A stretch of DNA of 32,000 bases from Microcystis aeruginosa NIES-2549. GTDB taxonomy: Bacteria > Cyanobacteriota > Cyanobacteriia > Cyanobacteriales > Microcystaceae. The notes beneath the pieces were generated by a model. That model worked only from the letters and a program-made list of their open reading frames with translations, did no database searches and was not told the DNA's origin. The DNA lies in contig NZ_CP011304.1 in NCBI RefSeq assembly GCF_000981785.2, positions 600,001 through 632,000 on the forward strand, in the 5' to 3' direction. Made by a program: the position numbers and the translations under genes. Below, in pieces: positions 4,415 to 29,614 of this stretch (positions are counted from its first letter, which is position 1; each line of letters opens with the position of its first letter).

Positions 4415-5335
4415 ATGAAAAAACTAATTTTATCCTGTTTATTTTTGGGATTGGTTGCTTGTAATCCCTCGGTTAATACCACCGATAACCAAAAACCCAA
4501 GGTAATCTCCACTAGCACAATTATCGCCGATTTAACCGCACGAGTGGGCGGTGAAGAAATTGACCATCAAGACATTTTAAAACCGGGGGATGATCCCCAC
4601 GTTTATGAACCAGTTCCCGCCGATAGTGTCGCTTTAGAAAAAGCCGATTTAATTCTCTATAACGGTTATAATCTCGAACCGGGGTTAATTAAAATGATCA
4701 ATTCTACGGGGATTAAGGCGAAAAAAGTGGCCGTGGGAGAAGCAATCAAGCCTTTACAACTGGCAAAAGAGGGGCAGAAAGTCCCCGATCCCCACGTTTG
4801 GGGTTCGGCGAAAAATGGGATAATCATGGTGGAAAAAATCCGAGATCAATTGATTGAATTAAGTCCCGAAGATAAAGGGATTTTTACTGCAAATGCCGCC
4901 CAATTAATCGCAGAATTAGAAAACCTTGATCGCTGGATTGCTGCGGCTATTGAAACTATCCCCCCTTCCCAAAGACAATTAGTCACCACTCATGACGCTT
5001 TTCAGTATTATGCTCATGCCTATGGTTTAAAAGTAGCGGGAACTTTAATTGGTATTAGTACCGAAGAACAACCTAGCGCCCAAACAGTGAAAAATCTAGC
5101 CGATGCTATTAAAAATCTCCAGGTTGCTGCTATCTTTGCCGAGACCACTATTAATCCCGCTTTAATTACCACGGTAGCGGAAGAAGCGGGGGTGAAATTA
5201 GCACCACAACAATTATATTCTGATTCGATCGGCGCGGTGGGTACTAGGGGGGATAGTTATGTAAAAATGCTGAAAGAAAATACGCGCTCGATCGTAGAAT
5301 CTTTAGGGGGAAAAGTACCTCAAGAAGGTCAATAG
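4415..5335 (+). CDS. Metal ABC transporter substrate-binding lipoprotein, ZnuA/MntC/TroA (cluster A-I) family
   Basis: Lipoprotein signal MKKLILSCLFLGLVAC, plus DPHVYEP and DPHVW metal-ligand motifs and THDAFQYY. There is no long His-rich loop and no adjacent permease or ATPase. Confidence 0.8.
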   Translation: MKKLILSCLFLGLVACNPSVNTTDNQKPKVISTSTIIADLTARVGGEEIDHQDILKPGDDPHVYEPVPADSVALEKADLILYNGYNLEPGLIKMINSTGIKAKKVAVGEAIKPLQLAKEGQKVPDPHVWGSAKNGIIMVEKIRDQLIELSPEDKGIFTANAAQLIAELENLDRWIAAAIETIPPSQRQLVTTHDAFQYYAHAYGLKVAGTLIGISTEEQPSAQTVKNLADAIKNLQVAAIFAETTINPALITTVAEEAGVKLAPQQLYSDSIGAVGTRGDSYVKMLKENTRSIVESLGGKVPQEGQ

Positions 5336-10395: not shown

Positions 10396-10761
10396 CTATT
10401 CTAGATAATCCCCTAAAAAGACGAGTTTATTCTTGATATCTTCGGCAGAGCGGGTAGCGATTAAATTAGCAATAGCTTTTACCTGTTCTCCCACGGAATA
10501 TCTTTGTTTCGCGGCCACAATAATTCCCGTATGGCTGATCGAGCGCGTCATATAGGATTTATGCAATCGACAAAAATCGCCTACATTAAAAGTATAAATT
10601 ACCCGACCTTGCTGGGTTGCCCAAACCAGTTGATCGGGATCGGGTAGCTGAATGTTTTTCGCTTCCCAAGTGGTAATTACATCAATCTTCAGATTCCGCA
10701 AAGCTTCCACGACCGAGCGTTGACCCGCATCTTCATCAAGGTAGAGACGGATTTGACTCAT
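10396..10761 (-). CDS. PIN-like (DUF5615 / COG4634, Mut7-C-type) putative toxin of a type II TA pair
   Basis: 121 aa starting MSQIRLYLDEDAG, typical of the DUF5615 family. Its start shares 1 nt with the stop of the upstream DUF433 gene (TAATG). Confidence 0.75.
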   Translation of the reverse strand: MSQIRLYLDEDAGQRSVVEALRNLKIDVITTWEAKNIQLPDPDQLVWATQQGRVIYTFNVGDFCRLHKSYMTRSISHTGIIVAAKQRYSVGEQVKAIANLIATRSAEDIKNKLVFLGDYLE

Positions 10762-11051
10762 TAAAATTCACCGGCTCGATATCGTGATTCCCAGTCTTCA
10801 CAATCGGCTCGGTAAGCATCGATATCGGCCTCTATCTGTTCTTTATTCGCGTGATAATACGCTAGAGCGCTATAAATTTGAGCCAGACTTAACTGAGGAT
10901 ACTCCTTAGCGATCGCTTCGGCACTCATTCCCGTTTTATGATCCATGACTAAACTTTGAATCGTGATTCTAGTTCCCGCGATCCGGGGACGAGCATTACA
11001 AATATCCGGACTAGCCACAATAAATTCGCTAATATCGATGCCTGTAGCCAT
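10761..11051 (-). CDS. DUF433 (COG2442) putative antitoxin
   Basis: SPDICNARPRIAGTRITIQSLV... is the DUF433 signature. The start was trimmed to MATGIDISEF, because the longer ORF runs into the repeat at 11080. Confidence 0.75.
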   Translation of the reverse strand: MATGIDISEFIVASPDICNARPRIAGTRITIQSLVMDHKTGMSAEAIAKEYPQLSLAQIYSALAYYHANKEQIEADIDAYRADCEDWESRYRAGEF

Positions 11052-11079
11052 ATTTTCGCCTAAAGAAGTCCCTTTTATT

Positions 11080-11309
11080 GTAGCTCGATCGATACATCCG
11101 AACAACCAAAAAGCACTCCCTAAAATTAGAGAATGCCCTTTTCTTTAATGATTTAGACCCTAACTGATTGAATTGACAAAAATAGGGAATTTATAGCCTC
11201 TGCGGAGTAGAATTCTCATCAAAGTCAGGTTATATTATGACCGTTTCTTCCTCAAAAAACCCACCAGAGAAAACAGCCCTAACCCTAAAATAGCGCTAGG
11301 CTCCGGTAC
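11080..11309. repeat. Copy 2 of the roughly 215-230 bp repeat (3' end and terminator region of the intact PEP-CTERM gene)
   Basis: See copy 1 at 10055..10268. Confidence 0.85.
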
Positions 11310-12793: not shown

Positions 12794-12882
12794 AGCGAAG
12801 CTTATAACTAGCAACTTGGGTTAATTTAAATGCGGAACAAATTACTAAATTAAGAGGTTAATCAGTCAAAAAAAGGCAAAAA

Positions 12883-13308
12883 ATGGAAGAATTATTAGAG
12901 TTAAAAAATCTATTAATAGCTGGCAATGTTCCCGATGCCTTGATTTTGGTAGAGGAAATGACAGAAATGAGCAAAGATGATAAGCTCAATAAGATTTTTA
13001 GCTTTAGTATTATTGTCCTATTACATCTGATTAAACAGCAAGCAGAAAAACGCAGTACCCGCTTATGGGAAACCTCTATTTCTAATTCTGTTCGACAGAT
13101 TCAACGCATTAATCAACGACGTAAAACTGGAGGAAATTATCTAACACCAGAAGAATTAAAAGAAACCTTAGATGATGCTTATTATTCCGCTTTAAGACAA
13201 GCGGCATTAGAAGCTTTTGAAGGTATATATAAACCAGAAGAAATTGAGGCTATGATCGATAAAAATAAAATTATTAATCAAGCATTGGAATTAATATTAA
13301 TCGATTAA
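12883..13308 (+). CDS. DUF29-like helical protein (141 aa)
   Basis: LLHLIKQQAEKRSTRLWETSISNSVRQIQRI...LKETLDDAYYSALRQAALE resembles the conserved core of cyanobacterial DUF29 proteins. Recognised from memory only. Confidence 0.45.
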   Translation: MEELLELKNLLIAGNVPDALILVEEMTEMSKDDKLNKIFSFSIIVLLHLIKQQAEKRSTRLWETSISNSVRQIQRINQRRKTGGNYLTPEELKETLDDAYYSALRQAALEAFEGIYKPEEIEAMIDKNKIINQALELILID

Positions 13309-13488
13309 GTAACAGGTGACAGTCGGAAACAAATCAGGAGGTTTAAATGTCAGAAATAAAATAATTTGGCAAATATTTATAAAAAAACGAGAAAAATAAA
13401 ATCTGTTCCCTTATCCCAAATAGCAATACAAACGTTCTATTACTTACTTATATGGATATTCAAACCCTTTTAGAATGGACAGATAAAC

Positions 13489-14763
13489 CTGACAGGGGGA
13501 CAAGCAAGCTGAAAAGCTTATGTAGCATAAAATACAGACACAGACTCCAAAAAAAGATAAGTCATATTTACCATATATGACCTAAATAACGAAAATGATA
13601 AGTGAACTATACCAGAAAGTGTTAGAAAATGAACTGGGACGAGCCAGATATCTACTGTTGTTAATGATAGTTGGAACCTTGCAAATACTAAAGCAAGCTA
13701 AGTTAGAGATATTAGCTGAAGCCTTACCAATACCAATCCTGTTTGAGAGTCGGAGAAAAAAACTAAAAAGATTTTTAAAGCTGGAAATTCTGAATATTGA
13801 AAAAATCTGGTTTCTCTGCCTAAAAGAGATGTTAAAACAGCAGCAGAGATTCACAACAAAAGGATTAGCGTATATTGCCATAGACCGGACAAGTTGGGGA
13901 GCAATAAATATCTTGATGGTGAGTCTAATTTATGACAAGAGAGCCATCCCAATCTATTGGGAGATATTAGATAAAAAAGGAAGTAGTAATCTCGAAGAAC
14001 AGCAGCGAGTATTAGAAAAAACATTGACCGTGCTATCAGGTCATAAAATAGTGGTGTTAGGAGATAGAGAATTTTGCTCGGTCAGTCTTGGAAAGTGGCT
14101 TCAGAAGCAGAGTTTATACTTTTGCTTAAGACAAAAAAAAAGTACAAATGTCAAGACAAAAGAAGGAATTTATCAAGAAATGAGAGAGTTAGGTTTAAGT
14201 CCAGGAACTCAACTATTTTTGAATGATGTCAATATTACAAAAGAGCAGGGATTTGGACAGTTTAACTTAGCTGGTAAGTGGAAAAAAACCTATGGGGGTT
14301 TTCAAACAAAAGAACCTTGGTATATTCTGACAAATTTTGTGGATTTAGAGACGGCAATAATTGCCTATCAAAAAAGATTTGATATTGAGGAGATGTTCCG
14401 AGATTTTAAGTCGGGAGGCTATAGCTTAGAAGGTTCTCAATTAGCACCCCAATACTTATCAAAGCTGATAATTGTTATAGCTATCGCCTATACAAGTGCC
14501 ACACTACAAGGTAAAAAAATTAAGGATATGGGAATCCAAAAATATGTCACAAGACCTGAAAAAAGATATAAAGGTCAACGCAGACACAGCAGTTTTTATG
14601 TGGGTCAACATCTCTATCATTGGCTCCAGCTACATCAAATGTTCCAAAAAAATATAGAAGAGCTAATGCAAATTAGCCGCTATCGGTTGAAGGATTACAT
14701 CAAGGGACAAAGAGCTATATCGCTTGCTCTATCTACCTTCTAGCTGGCTTGTCCCCCTCCCAG
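13489..14763 (+). mobile_element. IS4-family insertion sequence (1275 bp) with imperfect terminal inverted repeats and a 9-bp target-site duplication
   Basis: The left end is ctgacagggggacaagcaagct and the reverse complement of the right end is ctgggagggggacaagccagct, matching at 19 of 22 positions. The direct repeat cagataaac sits at 13480..13488 and 14764..14772. Confidence 0.9.
13595..14743 (+). CDS. IS4-family DDE transposase
   Basis: DDE candidates are DRTSWG and GDREF. The motif YQKRFDIEEMFRDFK has exact Y-(2)-R-(3)-E-(6)-K spacing, which is characteristic of IS4. Confidence 0.9.
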   Translation: MISELYQKVLENELGRARYLLLLMIVGTLQILKQAKLEILAEALPIPILFESRRKKLKRFLKLEILNIEKIWFLCLKEMLKQQQRFTTKGLAYIAIDRTSWGAINILMVSLIYDKRAIPIYWEILDKKGSSNLEEQQRVLEKTLTVLSGHKIVVLGDREFCSVSLGKWLQKQSLYFCLRQKKSTNVKTKEGIYQEMRELGLSPGTQLFLNDVNITKEQGFGQFNLAGKWKKTYGGFQTKEPWYILTNFVDLETAIIAYQKRFDIEEMFRDFKSGGYSLEGSQLAPQYLSKLIIVIAIAYTSATLQGKKIKDMGIQKYVTRPEKRYKGQRRHSSFYVGQHLYHWLQLHQMFQKNIEELMQISRYRLKDYIKGQRAISLALSTF

Positions 14764-16178
14764 CAGATAAACAGGTATTAGACAAAACCGGTAAACATCT
14801 TGATTCGTTGCAAGAATCCATCTTACAGGGTATTTGGGAACATCAAGATTACGAAGAAATTGCCAAAGATAATCAGCGCAGTTATGACCATATAAAAAAA
14901 GAAGCATGGAAGTTATGGCAACTGTTATCAGATGTTTTTCAAGAAGATATAAAAAAGTCTAATGTTCGTTCTATTTTAGAAAATAAAGCTTCATCTACTA
15001 TTTATCACTTTGTTAACCATCATGGTAATAATATTAGTAATAACCATATAAACATCTGTAGAGAAAATAACCCCTATTCAGAAAAAAACTTAAAAAAGTC
15101 TTCAAATTTTCCAGATAATGATCATCTATCCCCCATAATTGACTTAACAAAAGCTCCTGAATTAAGGTGTAACTATGGACGTAAGTTAGAACTATCTACC
15201 TTAAAAGAATGGCTAGATAATAAAACTCGATTAATTACTATTTATGGGTTAACTGGAATCGGAAAAACAGCTTTAACCCTTAAATTAATTTCAGAAATTG
15301 CCCCACAATTTGATTATATTATTTATCGCAGTCTGGAAAATATTCCTCAATTAATCGCTCTCAAAGATGATCTAAAACAGTTTTTCAGCCAATCTCTATC
15401 AACCCCCTTACCTGATATAATAGATTATCTAAGCTCCTATCGTTGTTTAATTATTCTTGATGATGTGCAGAATATTTTTAAACTGGGGGAATTAGCAGGT
15501 AAATATTTAAGCGACTGTCAGGATTATCATAAATTTTTTCAGCAAATTGCTACCACATCTCATCAAAGTTGTTTGATTTTAATTAGTTGGGAACTTCCCA
15601 GAGATTTTGTTACCTTAAAATCCGATAAAATTAAAACTTTATACCTACAAGGTTTAACAACAGAATTTGAAAAAATATTCAAAGAATACGGTTTAAAAAG
15701 TGAGGAAAAATGGACGAAACTGAGGGAACTTTATCAAGGTCATCCTAACTGGTTAAATATCATCTCCTCAACCATTATTGAGCTATTTGATGGAGAAGTA
15801 TCCTTATTTTTAGAACAAATGAAAAATGAAATTTATTTAGGAGATATAGAAGACTCGATCGAATGTCATTTACAGCGTTTATCCGCAACAGAAAAAAAGG
15901 TGATGCACTGGTTAGCTAATCAAACTGAAGCGGTAGAAAAGTTTCCCAAAACTGCTAATCTTGACTTATCTACTTCTGAATTTTGGGCAACTATTCAGTC
16001 ATTAATGAGACGCTGTTTACTGGATAAATTACCATCAGAAACCTCGTCCTATTTTCCTATTAATCCTGTGTTTAAATCCTATCTTCAAAGAAATCCTAAC
16101 GATTAGAAAAAATTGATATTATTCTAAATATATGTGTACCGCAACGCAGAAACCCGCAGGATCGCTTTCCAGTCTATA

Positions 16179-16466
16179 CTATTTTCTATACACCTGATCG
16201 TGACTACCAATATCAATTAACAAGATGATAACTTCTAAATATTCTCCATCTTCCGAAAAACTAAAAATAATTCGACAATCGTAAGCGACAGTACAAGACC
16301 ATAACTCTTCTAAATTACCACTTAACTTATGGGTTTTTAAAGACAGTGTAAATGGGTCTTCTGCCAGTTTTCTAAGTACATCGAAAGTTTTAGGTTTTAA
16401 CTGGGGATTTTTCTTGATTAGCTTCTTAAACGAACGCTTAAACCCATCACTCCATATTAGATCCAT
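16179..16466 (-). CDS. RelE/YafQ-type mRNA-interferase toxin (type II TA)
   Basis: 95 aa with ...KTHKLSGNLEELWSCTVAYDCRIIF...IGSHDQVY, typical of YafQ/RelE-fold toxins. It begins 2 nt after the upstream small gene. Confidence 0.75.
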   Translation of the reverse strand: MDLIWSDGFKRSFKKLIKKNPQLKPKTFDVLRKLAEDPFTLSLKTHKLSGNLEELWSCTVAYDCRIIFSFSEDGEYLEVIILLIDIGSHDQVYRK

Positions 16467-16468
16467 TG

Positions 16469-16678
16469 TTAATCCTCATTCAAATCGGCAATCAAATCTT
16501 CTACGGTTCCCTTTCTGGCCGTTCCAGTAGCGATCGCCTCTTTCAATTCCTTAAAATTAGCTAAAATTTCTCTTTCTCTTGCTTTAGCTCTATATTGACA
16601 CAAAATCTCTAACAATGACTCCTGTTCATCCTCTGATAAATTCTCAAAAGATTTGATCATTTCTTGCAAAGTCATCAT
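16469..16678 (-). CDS. Cognate small acidic antitoxin (69 aa)
   Basis: Lies immediately upstream of the toxin and is tightly coupled to it. It is a helical, acidic protein related to the 17063..17278 product. Confidence 0.6.
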   Translation of the reverse strand: MMTLQEMIKSFENLSEDEQESLLEILCQYRAKAREREILANFKELKEAIATGTARKGTVEDLIADLNED

Positions 16679-16758
16679 TTTACCTCTTAACTCTCGATAA
16701 AAACCTGGAATCTCTTATTCTTTGTGTGATCAGTTTAACTTACATAGGAGCGATCAAT

Positions 16759-16788
16759 CTTTGTGTCCTTTGTGTCTTTGTGGTTTGC
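16759..16788. repeat. CTTTGTGTCCTTTGTGTCTTTGTGG motif (dispersed intergenic repeat family)
   Basis: ctttgtgtcctttgtgtctttgtggtttgc here, and the closely related ctctttgtgtcctctgtgcctctgtagttt at 27208..27237. Confidence 0.6.
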
Positions 16789-16841
16789 TCCACTCGCTCG
16801 TCACCAGGACTGTATCTTAGAATACATTTTACCCACCAAAC

Positions 16842-17057
16842 CTAAGAGAGCCAAATAATCCGACAATCATAACCACAAGAACAAGCTTTAAGTCCCGATA
16901 ATTCCCCTTTTAATGAATGAGTTCCCAAGTTCAAAAAATAAATATCTTCCCTCATTTGTGCCAATGTTTTCTCAATCGCTTTCTGTCGTTGAGGATTTCT
17001 GAGAACAAACTTACGGAAAGTCCGCTTAAATTTAGGCGTTAAAACCAGTTCTCTCAT
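16842..17057 (-). pseudogene. 3'-truncated RelE/YafQ-type toxin paralogue
   Basis: Aligns with the 16179 toxin up to GYDCRIIW, then stops (71 vs 95 aa). It lacks the C-terminal segment that carries GSHDQVY in the intact copy, and the dispersed repeat motif lies just downstream. Confidence 0.6.
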
Positions 17058-17062
17058 AATAT

Positions 17063-17278
17063 CTATTCTAAAGTTTCTCTCAATTCTCTCAGAACAATTT
17101 CTAGGGGTTGAGGTTTAAATTCTCTTTGATGAAAAGCATTAATTGACTCCCTAGCATCCCTAGCAATTTCTTGACGACGAATATCAAGTAAACGATTTTG
17201 TAAAATTTCTAATAACATTTCCTGTTGTTCTAAAGATAGTTGCTCAACAGTATTTAAAGCTTGTTCTAAACTGATCAT
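17063..17278 (-). CDS. Small antitoxin paralogue (71 aa), now paired with a truncated toxin
   Basis: Same size, position and LS(L/E)(D/E)(E/Q)QE.LLEIL motif as the 16469 gene. It is 5 nt upstream of the toxin remnant. Confidence 0.6.
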   Translation of the reverse strand: MISLEQALNTVEQLSLEQQEMLLEILQNRLLDIRRQEIARDARESINAFHQREFKPQPLEIVLRELRETLE

Positions 17279-17321
17279 AATTTAACCTCAAACTCAAAAA
17301 ACCACCTTCTATTCTAACAAC

Positions 17322-17352
17322 AAAAAAGCACCCCCTCGCGGGAGTGCCTTTT
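17322..17352 (-). terminator. Intrinsic terminator of psbA
   Basis: The minus-strand RNA reads GGCACUCCC-GCGA-GGGGGUGC followed by UUUUUU, about 16 nt after the psbA stop. Confidence 0.75.
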
Positions 17353-17367
17353 CGTTCAGACTAGGAA

Positions 17368-18450
17368 TTAACCATTGATAGCGGGAGCGGTCAGAGCTAC
17401 GGGAGCCTGTTCACCACTAGCTAAGTCTAAGGGGAAGTTGTGAGCATTACGCTCGTGCATTACTTCCATACCGATACCAGCGCGGTTTAACACATCAGCC
17501 CAAGTACCGATTACACGACCTTGAGAATCGAGAATCGACTGGTTGAAGTTGAAACCGTTGAGGTTAAACGCCATGGTGCTAACACCCATTGCCGTAAACC
17601 AGATACCGATTACCGGCCAAGCACCTAAGAAGAAGTGCAGGGAGCGGCTGTTGTTGAAAGAAGCGTATTGGAAGATTAAACGTCCGAAGTAACCGTGAGC
17701 GGCAACGATATTGTAGGTTTCTTCCTCTTGACCGAATTTGTAACCGTAGTTCTGAGATTCGATTTCAGTGGTTTCACGCACTAAGGAAGAAGTTACTAGA
17801 GAACCGTGCATCGCGGAGAACAAGGAACCGCCGAACACACCAGCCACACCTAACATATGGAAGGGGTGCATCAGAATGTTATGTTCTGCTTGGAACACGA
17901 ACATAAAGTTGAAGGTTCCAGAGATTCCTAAAGGCATACCATCAGAGAAGGAACCTTGTCCGATGGGGTAGATTAAGAATACAGCAGTAGCGGCGGATAC
18001 AGGTGCAGAGTAAGCTACACAGATCCAAGGACGCATTCCTAAACGGAAAGACAGTTCCCACTGACGACCGAGGTAGCAGAAGACACCTAGTAAGAAGTGG
18101 AAAATGACTAACTGGTAGGGACCACCGTTGTATAACCACTCATCTAAGGAAGCAGCTTCCCAGATGGGGTAGAAGTGGAGTCCAATCGCGTTAGAAGAGG
18201 GAACAACCGCACCAGAGATGATGTTGTTTCCGTAGAGTAGAGAACCAGCTACAGGCTCGCGGATACCGTCGATATCTACGGGAGGAGCGGCGATAAAGGC
18301 GATGATGAAGCAGGTGGTGGCGGTGAGCAGGGTGGGGATCATGATCACACCGAACCAACCGACATAAAGACGGTTGTTGGTGCTGGTGATCCACTGGCAG
18401 AACTGCTCCCACAGGGAAGCGCTCTCGCGCTGTTGTAGAGTTGTAGTCAT
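17368..18450 (-). CDS. psbA: Photosystem II reaction-centre protein D1 (precursor with C-terminal extension), Gln-130 (D1:1-type) form
   Basis: A 360-aa canonical D1 sequence with GRQWELS (Q at the E/Q130 position) and the C-terminus ...[20 protein letters not shown]. Confidence 0.98.
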
Positions 18451-18507
18451 GGTTGGATAATTTCTGTATGTATTAGGTTGTCAAGGTTCGTTGTTTGACA
18501 TGAGTTA

Positions 18508-18536
18508 ATACTATCGGCTTTTTATAGTTATGTAAA
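18508..18536 (-). promoter_or_regulatory. Candidate sigma70-type psbA promoter (TTTACA-17 nt-TAGTAT)
   Basis: On the minus strand, TTTACA (18536..18531), a 17-nt spacer, and TAGTAT (18513..18508), roughly 55 nt upstream of the psbA ATG. Confidence 0.5.
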
Positions 18537-18565
18537 GGGGTTTTAAGGAATATTTTTTTATCAAT

Positions 18566-18605
18566 GTCATAACTTTTACTTATATAATTGATGTTCATGT
18601 AAACT
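18566..18605 (+). promoter_or_regulatory. Candidate NtcA-type promoter of cynS (GTC-N8-TAC, 20 nt, TAAACT)
   Basis: gtcataacttttac at 18566..18579 keeps the GT-N10-AC core, and the TAN3T-type box taaact lies at 18600..18605. The ATG is at 18636. Confidence 0.35.
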
Positions 18606-18635
18606 AGATGCAGACAAATTCTGCAAAAATAAGCG

Positions 18636-19073
18636 ATGATACCCGAAATTACCGCAAAACTATTGGAAGCGAAGAAAGAAAAAGGCCTCAGTTTCGCTGA
18701 CCTAGAAGCGATTCTAGGGAGAGATGAGGTGTGGATTGCCGCTGTTTTTTACCGGCAAGCGAGCGCCTCCCCAGAGGAAGCAACGAAAATTGTGGCAGCT
18801 TTGGGACTGGGAACCGAAATCATCCCATTCTTAACCGAGTATCCTGTCAAGGGATTGGGTCCGGTTGTCCCCACCGACCCCCTGATTTATCGTTTCTATG
18901 AGATCATGCAGGTGTATGGAATGCCCCTAAAATCGGTAATTCATGAAAAATTCGGCGATGGTATTATGAGTGCGATCGATTTTACCCTCGACGTGGATAA
19001 GGAGGAAGACCCTAAAGGCGATCGCGTTAAAATTACCATGTCGGGTAAGTTTTTATCCTATAAGAAGTGGTGA
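18636..19073 (+). CDS. cynS: Cyanase (cyanate hydratase)
   Basis: 145 aa. [24 protein letters not shown]...[11 protein letters not shown]...[26 protein letters not shown] is a typical CynS sequence. Confidence 0.93.
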
Positions 19074-19090
19074 GTCCGGCTAAAGTCAAC

Positions 19091-19114
19091 GGTAAGGAAT
19101 TTCTATTCCTTGCC
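19091..19114 (+). terminator. Hairpin downstream of cynS (possible terminator)
   Basis: ggtaaggaat-ttct-attccttgcc forms a 10-bp stem with one G-U pair. The T-run comes only about 10 nt later. Confidence 0.45.
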
Positions 19115-19649
19115 GCTCTTGCTATTTTTCTTAACAAAACTTAACAATTGACGGCAAAATTTTGCTTGCTTTTTTTGGCAGATTTTGGGACAATATTTTA
19201 AAAATAGTTTAATAATAATGGAAATATAACCACCTAGCTATAATCACAAAAGTCCCATTATAAGAAAATCATAACCCAAGCCGCCGCAAAAGTCAAGGGA
19301 TCTCGCCTAATTATGCTGTGAAACTTCTAATTCCTTGATCGGTGAGGGTTTGGGGAATTATGAATTATGAATTGGGGAGTGGGAAGACAGTAAACTGATA
19401 ACTGCCAATTCAGACTTGAATTGGCGATGTTATATTGAACATTTTCAAGAAGAAGGCGCACCGCAAAGCGGATCTCTGCGATATCGCTGTTTTTTTACCG
19501 CTTATGAAACTAACATTATTGTTCCTTTAAAATCTTTGAGGATTGAGGTAGAGATGGCAGATGTTTATAACAAAGTAATCTTTAGTTAAAGCCTTAAATA
19601 TGGAGCTTTTGTTATCATTAGAATACATAAATATTCGTCATAAAAAAAA

Positions 19650-20084
19650 TTAGCGTAGGCAATGATTAATAGAAAAACTGAATACTTGTGCAAGTTGTTG
19701 TGAACAAGTTACCTCCGCTATTCGGCGAAGATTAACCATAACGATAGCTCCAAAAAACATTATATTAACAAGAAATGGTGAATAGGGAACTCCGAAATAT
19801 GAAGAAGCACAAGATAAAAAAAGATGTGCCACAAAATATGATACTATAACAAGCAATAAATCAGTTAAAATTGCAGATATATCTAAACTTAAGCCTAGTA
19901 CATGTGTTATGGCATAACTTAGAAGAGTCAAGCTAGTACCTAATAAAAGTAGTCCTGATATTGCTCTAGGCTCTTGTTCAAAAAGTCCCCAAAATCCCAA
20001 ATAAATCGCCGTCAATGAAAACCCAACGGAGACAGCTTTTACGATCCCATCGTAAACATTTCCCAAAGCATTTCCCCAATCCAT
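19650..20084 (-). CDS. Small integral membrane protein, about 4 TM helices, no recognised family
   Basis: Four hydrophobic segments, AT-rich coding sequence, and the same strand as the gene 88 nt upstream of it. Confidence 0.6.
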   Translation of the reverse strand: MDWGNALGNVYDGIVKAVSVGFSLTAIYLGFWGLFEQEPRAISGLLLLGTSLTLLSYAITHVLGLSLDISAILTDLLLVIVSYFVAHLFLSCASSYFGVPYSPFLVNIMFFGAIVMVNLRRIAEVTCSQQLAQVFSFSINHCLR

Positions 20085-20172
20085 AAAAAATTATCCAGCT
20101 AACTTTACCAATTTATGAAATTATCAAAGTATCAAAAATATTGGGTAAATTTTAACAATTTGTGTGCTAGAT

Positions 20173-20559
20173 TTACTCACCGAATAATTTACCATGTACA
20201 GCATTTACAAACGCTTCTCCTTCTGATTTTTGCCATGGCCATCCAGTGACAGGAGTTGCTGTTCCTCCGGCCGTAACCACGTTTACCGTTGGAGAACCCC
20301 ACATCAATAGAATACCAACAATCAAGGGAATAATACCCACTACTACAGTTATCAAAACAATTCCTAAAACAATAAGGAATAGTCCCCCAAAAACTTTCCT
20401 ATCCATTTCATATCGAACTGCAACAACTTGCTTGAGAGGAACATCTTCTCTTCGTCCACCACGAAACCAGCTTTTCTTCGCCATATAGGTAAGTCTTTTG
20501 TTCGTTACAATACCAAAACAGTTGTCAACTAAGACATTTTCTTTAGAACTTGATGTCAT
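20173..20559 (-). CDS. Membrane protein with a bacterial PH-like (bPH) fold apparently split by a long hydrophobic hairpin
   Basis: GIVTNKRLTYMAKK...EDVPLKQVVAVRYE (beta-rich), then about 32 hydrophobic residues, then PTVNVVTAGG...EGEAFVNAVHGKL (strands plus a terminal helix). The fold assignment is inference. Confidence 0.55.
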   Translation of the reverse strand: MTSSSKENVLVDNCFGIVTNKRLTYMAKKSWFRGGRREDVPLKQVVAVRYEMDRKVFGGLFLIVLGIVLITVVVGIIPLIVGILLMWGSPTVNVVTAGGTATPVTGWPWQKSEGEAFVNAVHGKLFGE

Positions 20560-21012
20560 TTTTTCCTCCCCATTTGATTTGTGTACTGGTTGAGCGTGCG
20601 GCCTGGGCTACATTGCCTAAAGCCACCTTAAGCATCCTGACTGTGATATGCTAGAACCTGTACTATTTCACATTTTCTTTACATTGGCTAAATAAAGCCT
20701 TGAAACTGCTTAATTACTTAGGATACATCGTAGTCTTGAGTTTAGTCAGTCGGAAAAGTCGGAACTTACAGCCAAACAATTGATCTGAAATATCGGAAAT
20801 ATCAGCTAAAATAAGTAAAAAACTTAGGTTCTTCCGAACTTACACTGTAGAAAATTCCTCAAGTTCCCTCTCTGCCCAGCAATGCTCTAAAGTTGATAAA
20901 TATCAATCTAACAAAAACTCAAAGCTTTAGTATATAAGCTTTACAAGCATGAGTTGTTGATAGTTTTACATGACAGGTTCGGTAGAGCCAAAACTTACCT
21001 AATCTATAGTCC

Positions 21013-22383
21013 ATGTTTCAAGCTAATCTATCTAATACGGTGTTAAATCTCTTAGATGAGTTGGTTTTTGCCAAAACAGATCAACATCTAGACTATCTTC
21101 AAAAAACTATCTTGCAAGGGACTTTAGAAGGTTACAAATACTCAGAAGTTGCCAAAGAATCTCATCTTAGTGAAGGTCATATTCGAGATAGTGCTTCAGA
21201 ATTATGGAAAATTTTGTCAGAAGTTTTAGGGGAAGATATTACTAAATCAAATATTAGAGCAGTTTTAAAGAAACATAGCTTTATAAATAATAATATGGGA
21301 CGAGATTTAGTCTCTTTTAATAATGTTCATATTTGTGATCATAATCCATTTTCCCTCAATAATAATAATTATCACTCTGAAATCCAGCGCGATCAACCTT
21401 ATTTAGATTTAGGTCATATTCCTGAAATAACTCAATTTTATGGAAGAATTACCGAATTAAATAACCTGCAAACTTGGATAGTTGCGGAGAAATACCGTTT
21501 GGTTACTGTGTTAGGTTTAAAAGGAATTGGTAAAACCACCCTTTCTTTGAAACTGGTTGATAAAATCAAAAATAGTTTTAATTATGTTATTCGCAGAAGT
21601 TTGTATTTTTGTCCAAAATTAGATGAACTTTTAAGTGAAATTTTACCCTCTATCAATCCTCAATTAAAGCTCTCTCAAAGTCTTGACAAGAAATTAAATT
21701 TATTCTTAGAGTTAATAAAAAGCCATCGCTGTTTGATTATTCTTGATGATTTACAAAGTCTATTTGATTCTAAAAAACTAGCAGGTAATTATCAAAAAGA
21801 GTACCAAGATTATCAACTATTGTTTAAAAGCATTGCTGAAGTCAATCATCAATGCTGTTTACTGTTGTTGAGTCAAGAAAAACCTATTGATACGACTTTT
21901 TATGGGCAGAAAAATAAATTCATTAAAACATTAATCATAGAAGGTTTAGGAGAAGATGCCATAGAAATTTTGCGCCATCATAATCTATTAAATGAAGACA
22001 GTTGGGAAGCCTTAATTAAATGTTATCAAGGTCATCCTCTTTGGTTAGAATTAGTTGCTAGTTTTATTCAAGAGACATTTTTAGGTAAGGTGGCTGACTT
22101 TTTGGAGATTAAATACCCGATTGCCGAAGAAACTTTAGAGCAGACTTTATTAAGTATTTTGCAAAGTTTAACAGAATCAGAGAAACTAATGTTAACAGAA
22201 TTAGCAAATTTTAATCAACCTATTTCTATTAAAGAAATGATCGACCAAACTTCTCTAGCTTATACAGATTCTTTGAAAGTAATTCAATCTCTAATCAGAC
22301 GAATAATAGTGGCAAAAGATGAAAACGCTCTATTATGTTTGAATCCTGTTTTTAAAGCTTATGTAATTAATCATCAAATCTAG
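21013..22383 (+). CDS. HTH-like N-terminal domain + NB-ARC/STAND P-loop NTPase + winged-helix, with no C-terminal repeat domain (456 aa)
   Basis: Walker A GLKGIGKTTL, Walker B CLIILDDLQ, LLLLSQEKP (RNBS-B position), QGHPLWLELV (GxP/GLPL-like), and LTESEKLMLTELA (winged helix). The N-terminal LQKTILQG..YSEVAK...HIRD..SELWKILSEVLGEDITKSNIR resembles the HTH module found on many cyanobacterial STAND and WD40 proteins. Confidence 0.8.
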   Translation: MFQANLSNTVLNLLDELVFAKTDQHLDYLQKTILQGTLEGYKYSEVAKESHLSEGHIRDSASELWKILSEVLGEDITKSNIRAVLKKHSFINNNMGRDLVSFNNVHICDHNPFSLNNNNYHSEIQRDQPYLDLGHIPEITQFYGRITELNNLQTWIVAEKYRLVTVLGLKGIGKTTLSLKLVDKIKNSFNYVIRRSLYFCPKLDELLSEILPSINPQLKLSQSLDKKLNLFLELIKSHRCLIILDDLQSLFDSKKLAGNYQKEYQDYQLLFKSIAEVNHQCCLLLLSQEKPIDTTFYGQKNKFIKTLIIEGLGEDAIEILRHHNLLNEDSWEALIKCYQGHPLWLELVASFIQETFLGKVADFLEIKYPIAEETLEQTLLSILQSLTESEKLMLTELANFNQPISIKEMIDQTSLAYTDSLKVIQSLIRRIIVAKDENALLCLNPVFKAYVINHQI

Positions 22384-22445
22384 GGCTGAGTCGAAAATTT
22401 TATCGCAATCATAATAGTTTACGAAATTCTACGACTGTCAAATAG

Positions 22446-22558
22446 TTACACCTGCATTTTAATTTCAGGAATTTCCCCATCTTGCCAGCGTTTTTCCAAG
22501 GCTGCAAGATACTCATTGCATCTTGTATATTAGTTAATGCCTCTTCCTCAGTATATCC
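22446..22558 (-). pseudogene. Degenerate relic of a HicB/UPF0150-like antitoxin gene
   Basis: The minus strand reads (stop)GYTEEEALTNIQDAMSILQ, then a frameshift, then LEKRWQDGEIPEIKMQV*. The G.TxEEAL.NI..A motif is typical of HicB-like N-domains. Confidence 0.3.
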
Positions 22559-22582
22559 CTACTGCACACTTAAAACTCAAAT

Positions 22583-22620
22583 CTGATAACTTATAACTGA
22601 TAACTGATAACTGATAACTG
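22583..22620. repeat. Heptamer tandem repeat (CTGATAA/CAGTTAT)n abutting the SSF symporter stop codon
   Basis: ctgataac ttataac tgataac tgataac tgataac tg. The symporter stop codon is at 22622..22624. Confidence 0.85.
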
Positions 22621-22621
22621 C

Positions 22622-24445
22622 CTAACCTAAATCTCGGTCTTTAGTGACAGTAATTTCCTTAGATAAATGGCGATACCAAGTAAAATAGAGACCGATGGAA
22701 AGCAAAAGAAAAACCAAAGCCAAAATCTTCAAACTTTGCCACTGCTTGATGATTAAAACAATCCCCATCATAAAGAGGACTAATTGCCAAGGAACGGTAA
22801 GAAAAGCGGCGATGATATCCCGTTGATTTTCCGCTTTAATTTTTGCCTGTAGGTTAGGTTTAACACTGTGACGGACTTCTCCCCAAAAGCCAAAAGGTCG
22901 GGTAACATTATAGAAATTTTCCATGACTAAACTATCAGTGGGAGGAGTTAACAAAGTAGCGATAATACAGCCAGCTAAAGCGAACAAACTCGGCACAAGA
23001 AAGAGAATATATTCCTGATATTGACTGTGACGGAAGAAAGGTAAAATTATCGCTTGTGAGGCAATAGCCGCAATCATTCCCGCTAAAGTTCCCACAGCAA
23101 AACCATAACCATTAAAGCGCCACCAATACCAACGTAATAGGAGAGGAACTGCTAATCCCACCCCTAATCCCGTGGTTAACCAACCCCAAATATCATTGAC
23201 ATTTTGGATATTAAAACTCAAAACTAAGCCAATTACTACCACAAAAATCGAGGCCAAACGACCTTGAAAAACTAACTCCTGTTCTCCCGCATTCGGTTTC
23301 AAAAAAGCTTGATAGATATCTTTGACCCAATAGGCAGCACTAGCGTTAATAACTGCGTTAAAAGTGGACATAGCCGCCGCTAAAAAAGCAGCAATTAATA
23401 ACCCTTTCATCCCCACCGGAATGTATTGAGTAATAACCGTGGCCAGAATTCTTTCCGGATCTGTAATCGTGCCTTCGGTTAAACCGTAGTGAATGCCTAA
23501 AACCGCAAAAGCTGTGACTAGAGGCCAACGGAAAGAAAGCAGAACAATCCAGAATAAAGATAATAAACCAGCATCTCGATCGCTTTTGGCGGCTAGGTAT
23601 CGTTGTAACATATAACCACCGCTGCCGCTGCAACCTTCGATGATGGTTTTAACTAAATAAAAGAAAATCACCCCACCAAACAAATTAAAGATGGCATAAT
23701 CTCCGGGTAAATCCAAAGTCAGGGAGGGAAAAATACTAGCCCATTCGCTTAAATTCCAAGTTTTTGGCTCCGTTGCCCCTGGAATGGCCACCGTGAAACT
23801 ATCGGGAAGATTAACGGTAAAAAAGGCGACTGCCGATACATAAATTACCGCCACAAAAATCAGAAACCCTTGAAATAAATCGGTAATTACCCCACCATAA
23901 AAACCACTGGCCACCGTATAAATCAAGGTTAGAAGAATTAATATCACCGAAGCAAGACGATCATCCATACCCAGAAACTGCCCTAAAAATTTCCCCCCCG
24001 CAACGGAGAAATAACTCATCGCACCGATAGAGAATAAGAGAGTGGCGACGGCGCTGATAATTCGGGCAAAATTCCCCTGTTTTCCAGTTCCAAAGCGAAA
24101 TTGCATCCATTCCGCCATGGTCATAACTTGGGCCCGGCGATTCCATTTGCCCATAAAAGCCATGAGAAAGGCCATAATTAGGACAACACCGCCGCGGATT
24201 TCGATAAATAGTCCTTTGGGTCCGACGGCGTAAATTAGGGCAGAAATGACCATAGTTCCCGCTAAATCGGTGTTAGCTGCCATTCCCGACACCCCTAACA
24301 TCCACCAAGGCAAATTGCGATTACCTAAAAAGTAGGATTCTAGACCTTGAGAAGCTTTTTTCTCGGCTATAATCCCGATTATTAGGGTTGCTGCCAGATA
24401 AAGCAGCACAATTACATAATCAATTAACTGCATAGTTGATATCAA
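22622..24445 (-). CDS. Sodium:solute symporter family (SSF) transporter, 607 aa
   Basis: About 13-14 TM helices, with an SSF-like N-terminal region (YFLGNRNLPWWMLGVSGMAANTD). The substrate cannot be inferred. Confidence 0.8.
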   Translation of the reverse strand: MISTMQLIDYVIVLLYLAATLIIGIIAEKKASQGLESYFLGNRNLPWWMLGVSGMAANTDLAGTMVISALIYAVGPKGLFIEIRGGVVLIMAFLMAFMGKWNRRAQVMTMAEWMQFRFGTGKQGNFARIISAVATLLFSIGAMSYFSVAGGKFLGQFLGMDDRLASVILILLTLIYTVASGFYGGVITDLFQGFLIFVAVIYVSAVAFFTVNLPDSFTVAIPGATEPKTWNLSEWASIFPSLTLDLPGDYAIFNLFGGVIFFYLVKTIIEGCSGSGGYMLQRYLAAKSDRDAGLLSLFWIVLLSFRWPLVTAFAVLGIHYGLTEGTITDPERILATVITQYIPVGMKGLLIAAFLAAAMSTFNAVINASAAYWVKDIYQAFLKPNAGEQELVFQGRLASIFVVVIGLVLSFNIQNVNDIWGWLTTGLGVGLAVPLLLRWYWWRFNGYGFAVGTLAGMIAAIASQAIILPFFRHSQYQEYILFLVPSLFALAGCIIATLLTPPTDSLVMENFYNVTRPFGFWGEVRHSVKPNLQAKIKAENQRDIIAAFLTVPWQLVLFMMGIVLIIKQWQSLKILALVFLLLSIGLYFTWYRHLSKEITVTKDRDLG

Positions 24446-24476
24446 TTTAACTTTCGATCGTTATAGCATCAATTGA

Positions 24477-24845
24477 CTACGATTTCTGGCTAACGGTTTC
24501 TTTTTCTAAGATTTGCACCCGTTGCTCTAGCTTTTTTAAATCTTCCTTTAATTCAATTACTAAAGTGGCTAAACGCTGGAATAGTGGGTCACTTTCCCCG
24601 ACCACTTCCCCATTTACTATACCCGTTCCCGATCGCCGTTGGGGAATCGGAGCGGCATTTTCCCTGCGGATGGTTATTCCTCGGACTTGACTTTCAAGGC
24701 GCTCGACTCGATTGCGGAGACTCATTAACTCCGATCTTACCGCCGTATCCGATTGTGCTTTGCTGGCATTAACAAAACTCAGTATTAGCAAAAGAGAGAT
24801 AATCAGGGTTAAAAAGCCATAAAAAGAGATTTTAGCTAATTTCAT
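24477..24845 (-). CDS. Secreted coiled-coil hypothetical protein (122 aa)
   Basis: Signal-peptide-like N-terminus (...LSFVNASKAQ) and heptad-rich helices at both ends. Confidence 0.55.
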   Translation of the reverse strand: MKLAKISFYGFLTLIISLLLILSFVNASKAQSDTAVRSELMSLRNRVERLESQVRGITIRRENAAPIPQRRSGTGIVNGEVVGESDPLFQRLATLVIELKEDLKKLEQRVQILEKETVSQKS

Positions 24846-24998
24846 CGATTTTACCCCCTATCTATCTGACCCGACTTAATGTTAAGAAACGTGGCTAAAT
24901 CTAAAGCTTGATTGCAATTCCGCCTCCGGGTGATTAGTGGCTCAAAAGAGGATGATAAGGTAAAAAGCACGATTTTGTCGAAATTTGGCCTTATCTCT

Positions 24999-25172
24999 AT
25001 GTATAAAAACTCAGATAAAGATTTTCTCGGAGCAGCAATCACAGCCGGTTTAGGTGCGGGAATCGTCACTTCTTTTGCCGTCAATCAAGGACAAGACATC
25101 GGTACAGCTTTAGGAATTACCGCTTTAGCGGCTGTTTGCGGTGTTATCTGCCGTCATTTTGACCTAATGTGA
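24999..25172 (+). CDS. Possible small Gly/Ala-rich membrane protein (57 aa)
   Basis: MYKNSDKDFLGAAITAGLGAGIVTSF...ALGITALAAVCGVICRHF. The start was trimmed from ORF 24912. An overlapping minus-strand ORF, 24851..25084, competes with it. Confidence 0.35.
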   Translation: MYKNSDKDFLGAAITAGLGAGIVTSFAVNQGQDIGTALGITALAAVCGVICRHFDLM

Positions 25173-25183
25173 TGCAATCTTCC

Positions 25184-25786
25184 TCACACCTCCAATTCTG
25201 CCGAAAAATCCCGTTTTTTCTCGTATTGATAGGGACCGAGCAGAGCGCCCCAAATTCCCTTACCGGTGCTGGGATCTAGACCTTTATCGTAGGTTTTTAG
25301 GCTATGACTCGTCACCTCGAAACCCAAAGACACCTGATAGGTTGTCCCCTCATAGGTGAATTGACAGTGCTGTTCCGGTTGCGGTTGGGCGATAAACTGG
25401 TATTGATTATCAGCGAGAGTATGGACTTGAACCGCTAAAGTGCAAGTAGGCAGGAAAGTTAGGTCTTCTAAGCTAATTTTTCGCAAAATATCGGGATTTT
25501 TGCCCGCACCTTGCACGGATTTCAGGTCATTAAACATATAATGCCTAACCTCTAACCCTGCCGATTCCGAGCGCGTTAATCGCCACAGTCGCGGTCGGTA
25601 GGGTTGGTCTAAATTGATTATACTGGCCTGTTCGGCAAAAAGAGCGATGCTGTCTTCCCGAAACAAAGGCAGCGGACGCAACCATAAACGCAGGTGAACG
25701 TACCACACCGGTTCTGCTTGCGCTTGCCGTTGATTTTCAAATTCACCCGCGAGATACCGACCGAAAGTGATTAATTCAGGGGTCAT
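25184..25786 (-). CDS. cpcT: Phycobiliprotein chromophore (bilin) lyase, CpcT/CpeT family
   Basis: The N-terminus LITFGRYLAGEFENQRQAQAEPVWYVHLRLWLRPLP is the family signature, and the protein is about 200 aa. Confidence 0.85.
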   Translation of the reverse strand: MTPELITFGRYLAGEFENQRQAQAEPVWYVHLRLWLRPLPLFREDSIALFAEQASIINLDQPYRPRLWRLTRSESAGLEVRHYMFNDLKSVQGAGKNPDILRKISLEDLTFLPTCTLAVQVHTLADNQYQFIAQPQPEQHCQFTYEGTTYQVSLGFEVTSHSLKTYDKGLDPSTGKGIWGALLGPYQYEKKRDFSAELEV

Positions 25787-26025
25787 AGCTCAAAAAATTC
25801 TCCGTATTGCCTCAAAATTAATCATAACACCCAGAGAAATAACTTTTTTAACAAAAATGACCTTCAGTCCACCGGAACCCGCTTAAACTGGGTTATTGCC
25901 CCTTGATTGTACCAATATTCCCAGCCAGCGCTTGAGGTCAAATTTACCGTTAAAAATCGTCCTATAATAATTCAAGGCTAGAAACTGACAATTATTAATG
26001 TTGAAGTTGAGAATCGGCGGGCGAT

Positions 26026-27174: not shown

Positions 27175-27325
27175 TCAGGAGATACTAGACAAAATTCTGC
27201 GGGTTGTCTCTTTGTGTCCTCTGTGCCTCTGTAGTTTAAAAAATGCTTATTGCCTGATCTCGAAATCAGACCAAAAAGGAATAGTTTTAAAGCAACAGGA
27301 GATACTAGGCAAAATTCTGTGAGTC
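27175..27325. repeat. Two direct copies of about 29 bp (caggagatactagRcaaaattctg) bracketing a roughly 90-bp MITE-like segment
   Basis: Copies at 27175..27204 and 27296..27325. The intervening DNA carries ctctttgtgtcctctgtgcctctgtag, related to 16759..16788. Confidence 0.7.
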
Positions 27326-27345
27326 GGAAACTTAACACTGATAAC

Positions 27346-27564
27346 TCATAAATTATACTTTCCTGAAAACCATTTGTATATAAGGTATAAAATGCTCGCA
27401 TTAACTACAAGACTAAGAAATTCAGAATATCTGTTTGCTTGTAAATTTGATGATGATCCTCCGAGCATTGCTTGTATATGGTTATTAACTTCTGGAGCAA
27501 TTAAAGTTATATAAGCGGCGACAACAAGGATAAATCCTAGCAGATAGCGATTAGACTGATTCAT
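27346..27564 (-). CDS. Possible small two-TM protein (72 aa)
   Basis: The internal Met of ORF 27346..27693 (MNQSNRYLLGFILVVAAYITLIAP...) is used as the start. The longer form only translates the heptamer repeat. Confidence 0.3.
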   Translation of the reverse strand: MNQSNRYLLGFILVVAAYITLIAPEVNNHIQAMLGGSSSNLQANRYSEFLSLVVNASILYLIYKWFSGKYNL

Positions 27565-27595
27565 CAATATTAAGGTGAAAAATACATTTACCCAA

Positions 27596-27636
27596 CTGAT
27601 GACTGATAACTGATAACTGATAACTGATAACTGATT
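27596..27636. repeat. Heptamer tandem repeat (CTGATAA/CAGTTAT)n abutting the M50 protease stop codon
   Basis: ctgatga ctgataa ctgataa ctgataa ctgataa ctgatta. The stop codon at 27635..27637 lies in the last unit. Confidence 0.85.
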
Positions 27637-28756: not shown

Positions 28757-28927
28757 TTTGTATCTTCTCCAATTATCGGGGACTAACGCCAAGAAGATTA
28801 GGTTATCAATTACGCCATTCACTTCTGTTAACAATTGTAACAAAAATGAAAATCTCTCCAGCATTCCTTCAGGGAGTAAAAACCGTCATTGCTGTGGTTC
28901 GGTTATTTTCGTAGGAGAATTAAATCA

Positions 28928-29557: not shown

Positions 29558-29582
29558 ATCAGGAGATAGGAGACAGCCTTTT

Positions 29583-29614
29583 CAGTTATCAGTTATCAGT
29601 GATCAGTTATCAGA
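29583..29614. repeat. Heptamer tandem repeat (CAGTTAT)n 26 nt after the ruvA stop
   Basis: cagttat cagttat cagtgat cagttat cag. Confidence 0.8.

Follow-up and report, generated by a model that had tools for sequence, protein, structure and literature searches.

An IS4-family insertion sequence splits an HTH and NB-ARC-like ATPase gene in Microcystis aeruginosa NIES-2549

The locus of interest lies in a 32,000-nucleotide stretch of the Microcystis aeruginosa NIES-2549 chromosome (contig NZ_CP011304.1, forward-strand positions 600,001 to 632,000; hereafter the window, in whose coordinates all positions are given unless a locus is named). Here, an insertion sequence (IS) sits close to the start of a gene for a protein with a helix-turn-helix (HTH) domain and an NB-ARC-like ATPase domain. 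The locus raises three questions: (i) has the gene been split by a transposition event, (ii) what, if anything, can the split allele still produce, and (iii) does its disruption say anything about the role of the gene family? To the first, we answer that a split by an IS4-family element is highly probable. The event is an ordinary IS4-family disruption of an accessory gene, of an already-known kind and unsurprising in a genus rich in active mobile elements.

The element is 1275 bp long and occupies 13489..14763 on the plus strand, in the same orientation as the gene that it interrupts. Direct reading of the sequence, together with a script check, confirmed all of the coordinates first proposed for it: a left terminal inverted repeat (13489..13510, plus strand; CTGACAGGGGGACAAGCAAGCT), a right terminal inverted repeat (14742..14763, minus strand; reverse complement CTGGGAGGGGGACAAGCCAGCT) that agrees with the left at 19 of 22 positions, and a perfect 9-bp target-site duplication, CAGATAAAC, with its left copy at 13480..13488 and its right copy at 14764..14772. 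Both repeats start 5'-CTG, and an independent repeat finder ranked the IS termini as the top inverted repeat in 12800..17400. The left repeat is identical in loci L004, L005 and L006.

In M. aeruginosa NIES-2481, an exact-protein look-up retrieved three further occurrences of the transposase, two of them on plasmid CP025929 and the third on the chromosome. All three IS copies align over the full 1275 bp with a single mismatch each (99.9% identity) and with identical termini, and each bears a perfect 9-bp duplication of its own (ATTTAGCAA, CGTTGTAGG and AACATGGAT), bringing the 9-bp target duplication to four of four independent copies. The assignment of the inverted repeats and duplication therefore holds when other copies (n = 3) are aligned, and since these share their termini while differing in their duplications, the IS boundaries are not a matter of chance. 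One of the copies on plasmid CP025929 (L004 1577..5749) cuts an intein-containing SNF2-family helicase gene into open reading frames (ORFs) of 469 and 539 amino acids. Within the window the IS ends are present only once, with no second copy there; a 382-amino-acid ORF at 26026..27174, equal in length to the transposase, was considered as one and rejected as an unrelated periplasmic solute-binding protein.

The sole long ORF of the IS (13595..14743, plus strand; stop codon 14741..14743, 20 nt before the IS end) encodes the 382-amino-acid transposase. Its best placement is in NCBIfam NF033591, transpos_IS4_2 (238.7 bits against a cutoff of 152, E 9e-71, residues 36-360); it scores just 26.5 bits with transpos_IS4_1 and below 27 bits with the other IS families of NCBIfam, and matches Pfam DDE_Tnp_1 at 35.7 bits (cutoff 23, E 1e-8). 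A motif search identified the DDE residues as D97 in IAIDRT (nt 13874..13891), D157 in GDREF (nt 14060..14074) and E265 in YQKRFDIEEMFRDFK (nt 14366..14410), all on the plus strand. The last of these lies within Y258-R261-E265-K272, that is, a Y-2-R-3-E-6-K motif; a Y-(2)-R-(3)-E-(6)-K signature around the glutamate characterises the IS4 family. The family match, the triad and the motif bear out the predicted IS4-family identity of the element. The transposase belongs to a 90%-identity cluster of 865 members; among the 40 listed, every named one is from Microcystis, and many are fragments. In a search of plasmid records only the NIES-2481 plasmid turned up, and its copy carries no RefSeq label beyond "IS4 family transposase".

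The interrupted gene can be restored exactly. Its 5' stub (13452..13488, plus strand) covers the first 12 codons, ATG included, plus one base of codon 13. The other two bases of that codon open the 3' body (14773..16106, plus strand), which extends to the stop and encodes the rest of the HTH_VMAP-M9 domain (to approximately residue 95), a low-complexity linker and an NB-ARC-like nucleoside triphosphatase (NTPase). Removal of the IS and one duplication copy joins the two pieces in frame into 1371 nt encoding 456 amino acids, starting MDIQTLLEWTDKQVLDKTGKHLDSLQESILQG; the insertion point 12 codons into the gene is thus as originally predicted. In a large protein collection, dozens of Microcystis proteins of 456-457 amino acids are 93-95% identical to the reconstruction over 100% of its length. 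The N-termini of the orthologues read MDIQ(T/N)LLEWTDKQVL(D/E)KTGKHLDSLQESILQG, and that of one orthologue, P0021, is identical to the reconstruction over the first 40 residues.

An empty site is found in another Microcystis genome. The syntenic locus in GCA_001578075.1 (L003) reads ATGGATATTCAAACCCTTTTAGAATGGACAGATAAACAGGTATTAGA, with the core ...GAATGGACAGATAAACAGGTATTAGA... and one CAGATAAAC only, and its intact orthologue starts with the same 37 nt as 13452..13488. L001 and L002 read CTGATAAAC at the orthologous position. The uninterrupted allele with a single target copy, anticipated from the window alone, hence exists, and 13452..13488 is the true 5' end of the gene. Among 33 aligned family members—extending down to 56-61% identity in Microcoleus, Phormidium, Tychonema and Aerosakkonema—M1 never varies and D11 almost never; conservation of these residues across genera argues that the first 12 codons are genuine coding sequence. 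L001 and L003 share the gene neighbourhood of the window: a DUF29 gene upstream, and a YafQ/ParE-type toxin gene with a small partner and two small ORFs downstream. L003 further keeps psbA and the cyanase gene (L001 stops before them), and L001 keeps an M1 peptidase gene further upstream.

From its sequence, the gene product is predicted to be an HTH_VMAP-M9 domain joined to an NB-ARC-like STAND ATPase without C-terminal sensor repeats. At approximately residues 147-280 it matches Pfam NB-ARC (25.0 bits, marginal against the cutoff of 23.5) and AAA_14 (31.1 bits), as well as ATPase_2, NACHT and nSTAND3/6. A motif search located Walker A (GLTGIGKT, 15246..15269), Walker B (LIILDD, 15447..15464) and a QGHP motif (15735..15746), all on the plus strand. 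Precomputed annotations place PF26355 (HTH_VMAP-M9) at the N-terminus of every orthologue and are the source of this assignment; our local Pfam scan gave no PF26355 match. Pfam detected neither a repeat sensor at the C-terminus nor an enzymatic effector domain in the split-gene product, which ends approximately 280 residues past the P-loop, or in its paralogue (see below). Against the Protein Data Bank (PDB), the family profile matches the plant NLRs Sr35, ZAR1 and MLA13 (NLR chains at E 1e-6) and the archaeal STAND protein PH0952.

The full-length AlphaFold model of P0021 is of moderate quality, with a predicted local distance difference test (pLDDT) score of 67 and a disordered linker at residues 87-145; in Foldseek it retrieves RPP1, Roq1, Apaf-1 and CED-4 first (E 1e-7, with low template modelling scores of 0.3-0.4) and ORC/Cdc6 close behind. 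The N-terminal domain, modelled in isolation, reaches pLDDT 92 and has five helices, with helix 1 formed by residues 3-18 at pLDDT 90-96. Its best fold matches are weak (KorA-operator, sigma-70 region 4, EvgA, FixJ and EL222; probability 0.8-0.9, E ~1), and a PDB search with the N-terminal domain profile gave no significant match.

A second, intact gene of the same HTH and NB-ARC architecture lies downstream in the window (21013..22383, plus strand; 456 amino acids; Pfam NB-ARC 29.6 bits, ATPase_2 37.3 bits). The reconstruction is collinear with this paralogue over its full length, as the original prediction held, at 37% identity (E 3e-90). The paralogue sits in a 3.2-kb segment (19313..22554) between cyanase and Na+/solute symporter genes, where L003 has approximately 60 bp instead. 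Two ORFs lie on its minus strand, 19650..20084 (144 amino acids) and 20173..20559 (128 amino acids); both contain strongly hydrophobic stretches, and neither has a Pfam match.

Several observations bear on when the IS arrived. The body of the split gene carries no lesion besides the IS, the target duplication is perfect, and the IS is 99.9% identical to its other copies. Comparison of the split allele with 22 intact alleles gives ratios of nonsynonymous to synonymous substitution rates (dN/dS) of 0.21-0.37, while the mean among intact alleles is 0.31. As judged by this ratio, the intact alleles are under purifying selection; given that the split allele shows the same values, there has been no detectable decay after insertion. 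These observations fit a recent insertion, in agreement with the timing first proposed.

The window allele is one of several disrupted copies of this gene. Approximately 42 Microcystis loci, from species-representative genomes and metagenome contigs, were scanned: 25 are intact, seven are cut by contig ends, and approximately ten are internally damaged in different ways. This makes ~10 of 35 assessable loci, a count in which metagenome frameshifts may be errors and the loci are not all independent. In the NIES-2481 orthologue (L008 11046..11802), residue 343 is followed by a 757-bp IS1-family element, which has GGCGTTGC termini, is flanked by the 8-bp duplication AAATATCA, and knocks the gene out independently of the insertion in the window. 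The 5' part of that orthologue is annotated "High-affnity carbon uptake protein Hat/HatR". Microcystis sp. BLCC-F210 (L016 5115..5215) carries a 101-bp insert resembling a miniature inverted-repeat transposable element (MITE), along with a nonsense codon at residue 82; LSC13-02 (L018 near 4959) has a 103-bp out-of-frame deletion; L095 has an insert of roughly 165-185 bp (~4890..5076); and several other metagenome contigs have frameshifts in the same gene.

The gene also varies by recombination. In Microcystis alleles at the same locus, the 3' 990 bp (from window position 15117) are 96-97% identical, while the 5' 375 bp and the upstream genes are unrelated. In protein sequence, P0044 is 39% identical over residues 1-127 and 96% over residues 128-456, and P0040 is 65% and 97% identical. 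In the mosaic alleles of L045-L047, L049, L050, L017 and L110, the NTPase body (from approximately residue 128) is 95-97% identical and the N-terminal 127 residues are 39-65% identical (87% and 40% for P0047). The recombination breakpoint coincides with the border of the HTH linker and the NB-ARC domain (14773..15116 versus 15117..16106). Upstream of the divergent N-termini lie genes for a vWA protein, a kinase or a MacB-type exporter; upstream of the window-type alleles lie VapBC and DUF29.

Different partners are found in more distant relatives. At six independent Oscillatoriales and metagenome loci, an orthologue (54-62% identical) is divergent to genes for an 80-amino-acid peptide and a 323-amino-acid MvdD-type ATP-grasp ligase (L024 4229..5781, L026 4358..5784, L029 4354..5773, L056, L062 and L068); the intergenic region is well conserved, and the outer genes differ. 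The peptide is conserved, with a Thr/Ser/Asp/Glu-rich C-terminus (...TSLTYDDTxSG...KDDSxQSDT), and the pair looks like a small graspetide-type cassette. We considered and rejected the ATP-grasp link as a universal property of the family: it was seen at the six independent loci only (L027 duplicates L026), and L059, L061 and L064 lack it despite similar identity and enough flanking sequence. The peptide and ATP-grasp module is absent from the Microcystis loci. Other relatives have a gene for a vWA protein, a Ser/Thr kinase or a PP2C-like protein upstream, and one Microcystis strain has a MacB-type exporter. The upstream cassettes seen thus comprise (i) the graspetide-like peptide and ATP-grasp ligase, (ii) vWA, kinase or PP2C-like proteins, (iii) the MacB-type exporter, and (iv) a toxin-antitoxin pair. 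Members of the split-gene family itself came, in this analysis, exclusively from cyanobacterial genomes and metagenome contigs.

What, then, became of the gene in NIES-2549? We propose that the 1275-bp IS4-family element transposed into codon 13 of the 456-amino-acid gene, with staggered target cleavage and repair producing the 9-bp duplication; by analogy with IS10 and IS50 of the IS4 family, the mechanism would be cut-and-paste, through a hairpin intermediate. The IS splits codon 13 between its first and second bases, within predicted HTH helix 1. The insertion parts the gene body from its ATG and upstream promoter region, cuts helix 1, and leaves a stub peptide of 42 amino acids, of which 12 are native and 30 IS-encoded (stop 13578..13580). 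For these reasons the allele is probably a full null, with both expression and function predicted to be lost.

A small group of observations weighs against a complete loss. The transposase gene is co-oriented with the split gene, its stop codon lies 20 nt short of the IS end, and a consensus scan of 13250..16300 detected no terminator-like site between the transposase gene and the gene body, making read-through transcripts into the body plausible. Downstream, the frame is open from 14691, with in-frame starts at TTG 14724, TTG 14808 (residue 25), GTG 15465, TTG 15573 and ATG 15819. As first described, the right end of the IS supplies the TTG that opens the mechanical ORF (14724..16106, plus strand), and the nearest ATG in frame beyond it is indeed distant, at residue 362. 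The predicted product of this ORF is a chimera of 460 amino acids whose first 14 residues (M/L-LYLPSSWLVPLPA) come from the IS and stand in for native residues 1-10 (junction peptide LYLPSSWLVPLPADK...). TTG 14724 or TTG 14808 could start a protein retaining residues 11-456 or 25-456, respectively. On the side of a null, the same scan identified no consensus sigma-70-type promoter in the IS right end and fewer promoter-like sites than in shuffled sequence; it is uninformative on read-out from the IS, and consensus scans in general catch cyanobacterial promoters and ribosome-binding sites poorly.

Several of these observations feed the first of the rival explanations, namely that the allele is altered rather than null: read-out from the IS, by transposase read-through or from an outward promoter at the right end, would combine with initiation at either TTG. 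We regard this as unlikely. Any protein made in this way would have an unaltered NTPase and a largely preserved HTH domain, with helix 1 changed or shortened, and its level or control might differ. The lesion-free body is in its favour, as are the 460- and 432-amino-acid products annotated in public databases, although these reflect gene callers rather than expression. TTG is weak as a start codon, no obvious Shine-Dalgarno sequence precedes either TTG, and IS transposase genes, such as those of IS10 and IS50, are usually expressed at very low levels. The chimeric N-terminus would place four prolines where helix 1 belongs, while a start at residue 25 would remove helix 1 altogether; lost with it would be L22, which is invariant, and D11, K17 and H21, which are nearly so. 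In Microcystis PCC 7806, moreover, IS insertions lowered the expression of adjacent genes (PMC11448079). A different explanation, that the insertion is an assembly artefact in which a repeat was wrongly placed in the gene, draws on the near-identity of the IS copies, repeats of a kind that commonly cause mis-joins in short-read assemblies. A mis-join, however, would not make a perfect 9-bp duplication of the exact target, of the length seen in three other copies; two contigs, the longest of 4.29 Mb and so a finished chromosome, carry the 432-amino-acid product that starts directly behind the IS. We therefore give an artefact almost no credence.

The remaining rivals accept the split and probably null allele and concern why it is tolerated. 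The original prediction saw in the insertion a recurring pattern, the IS knock-out of one copy of a potentially costly immune or abortive-infection gene, and took this as support for a conflict role. The pattern stands to the extent that the gene is disrupted repeatedly in Microcystis by different lesions; the conflict role is left unsupported by the lack of a credible PADLOC match, the lack of a sensor or effector domain, and the varied neighbour cassettes. IS and MITE copies number in the hundreds per Microcystis genome (PMC2779907), and IS movement is recorded between laboratory sublines (PMC11448079). Recurrent loss is thus no proof of a conflict role, being equally expected for any dispensable gene in an IS- and MITE-rich genus (PMC2779907, PMC11448079), and extrapolation to immunity is speculative. 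That a costly STAND protein is being lost under selection appears to us a poor bet, even next to the altered-protein reading. It would account for the independent breakage of one gene by an IS1-family element, a MITE-like insert, a deletion, another insert and frameshifts, and it is in keeping with the toxin-antitoxin genes that surround the locus, with the mosaic N-terminal module, and with the HTH_VMAP-M9 name, which derives from variable modules of proposed conflict systems (PMC7159879). Against it, PADLOC-DB 2.0 yields no match for orthologue P0021 and eight neighbouring genes, and for the paralogue a single weak match that is not credible (PDC-S27, E 2.7e-4, residues 141-205, covering the P-loop only). 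Purifying selection on the intact alleles also speaks against selected loss, and the proportion of damaged loci would need a background pseudogenisation rate to be set beside it, with some metagenome frameshifts being possible assembly errors. A somewhat better, though still tentative, explanation is that the gene is a STAND-type switch whose DNA-binding HTH regulates a neighbouring cassette, and that in the window the partner is absent and loss of the switch neutral. Pointing this way are the six divergent pairings with the peptide and ATP-grasp ligase amid varying outer genes; the vWA, kinase, PP2C-like or exporter genes upstream in other relatives; the change of the N-terminal 127 residues along with the upstream genes above a near-constant NTPase; and the N-terminal model, closest to the DNA-binding domains of KorA, sigma-70 region 4 and LuxR/FixJ-type proteins. 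In addition, the window has no divergent upstream partner, and lacks even the VapBC pair of L001 and L003. On the other side, the HTH fold matches are weak, the ATP-grasp link is confined to one subclade, DNA binding and a regulon are hypothetical, and intact type-A Microcystis alleles without a partner cassette are nevertheless under purifying selection. The co-replacement of N-terminal module and upstream cassette is compatible with either a regulator or switch whose HTH is tailored to the adjacent cassette, or a conflict system that diversifies; overall, the gene neighbourhoods point to a regulator at least as much as to a conflict gene.

Taken further, the regulator explanation suggests a family of minimal STAND switches in which the HTH is exchanged by recombination together with a divergent upstream cassette, giving each allele its specificity, and in which the window allele would be an orphan switch whose partner has gone. 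We offer this as a possibility with the odds against it. If true, it would explain the repeated tolerance of IS, MITE and deletion knock-outs.

Other differences in the surroundings were noted. At 13356..13379, the window lacks, relative to L001 and L003, approximately 1.0-1.2 kb with a VapBC-type pair (a 90-amino-acid ORF and a 147-amino-acid PIN protein), which in those loci sits between the DUF29 gene and the HTH and NB-ARC gene. Toxin-antitoxin-like pairs are otherwise abundant at the locus: DUF433 with DUF5615, a YafQ/ParE-type toxin with a 69-amino-acid partner, and two 71-amino-acid ORFs, one with a faint YafQ match (10396..11105, 16179..16678 and 16842..17278); none is found in PADLOC. 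In NIES-2481 (L008 13410..21068), gene order past psbA is reversed relative to window positions 17368..32000, the reversed genes being those for SelR, CpcD, two phycobilisome proteins, RuvA, an M50 peptidase, a solute-binding protein and CpeT; the cyanase-to-symporter segment is missing from that region. This suggests an inversion or rearrangement between NIES-2481 and the window strain. An Rfam scan of the entire window gave no RNA family.

The practical value of these results lies mainly in annotation: the gene is split by an IS, and its true 456-amino-acid product can be stated exactly. Public protein collections hold both the 460-amino-acid (14724..16106) and the 432-amino-acid (14808..16106) products, in a 90% cluster named "AAA family ATPase", while the exact 456-amino-acid reconstruction is in no collection. 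With these ORFs deposited as if intact and the reconstruction absent, annotation hides the disruption. Beyond this, the locus is one more documented case of ongoing IS activity shaping accessory genes in a bloom-forming, toxin-producing cyanobacterium. It also provides a natural knock-out of one of two HTH and NB-ARC paralogues, with isogenic-like intact alleles in related strains, which could help in finding the function of the family. The more novel part is the combination of a mosaic N-terminal module with changing partner cassettes.

How do the element and the gene compare with known systems? The IS resembles IS10 and IS50 (of Tn10 and Tn5) in several respects: (i) a single DDE transposase ORF fills an element of ~1.3 kb, (ii) the transposase has the D, D and E residues, a second motif like DREF/DREAD and the Y-2-R-3-E-6-K signature, and (iii) the inverted repeats are short, imperfect and start 5'-CT, with a 9-bp target duplication. 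It differs in that its transposase fits transpos_IS4_2 rather than transpos_IS4_1, its host is a cyanobacterium, and its four duplicated targets are unlike the IS10 target consensus. Closer to home, the ISMae elements of M. aeruginosa NIES-843 come from the same genus and include the IS4 family. Their IS4-family member ISMae5 differs in length, at 1694 versus 1275 bp, and the NIES-843 ISMae table holds no 1275-bp IS4-family element (PMC2779907).

The gene shares with Avs and other catalogued defence NTPases a STAND-type core, toxin-antitoxin surroundings and variability from strain to strain; it differs in lacking a credible PADLOC match, a sensor domain and an effector of the nuclease, protease or TIR type. 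With the VMAP-M modules of the vWA-MoxR ternary systems (PMC7159879) it has in common PF26355 (HTH_VMAP-M9) and, in some relatives, a vWA neighbour. VMAP-M0-M28 are described only collectively in the main text of Kaur et al. 2020 (PMC7159879), and no MoxR, VMAP-C domain or vWA gene was found among the window ORFs scanned around either paralogue. The NB-ARC and STAND NTPases Apaf-1, CED-4, plant NLRs and PH0952 are matched by an NB-ARC score above the gathering threshold in both paralogues, by Walker A and B, and by the GHP motif. Unlike Apaf-1, CED-4 and the NLRs, however, the protein has 456 amino acids and no C-terminal LRR, WD40 or TPR sensor, and its N-terminal domain is an HTH rather than a death-fold, TIR or enzymatic effector.

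A final comparison is with the STAND regulators MalT, LAL and SARP/AfsR, to whose families no Pfam or NCBIfam match was obtained. In MalT and LAL regulators the HTH is C-terminal, whereas here it is N-terminal, and the protein is far smaller, with no TPR or sensor domain. The likeness is in the general plan, an NTPase switch combined with a putatively DNA-binding HTH. LAL and SARP regulators sit beside small biosynthetic cassettes, and so do some relatives of the split gene.

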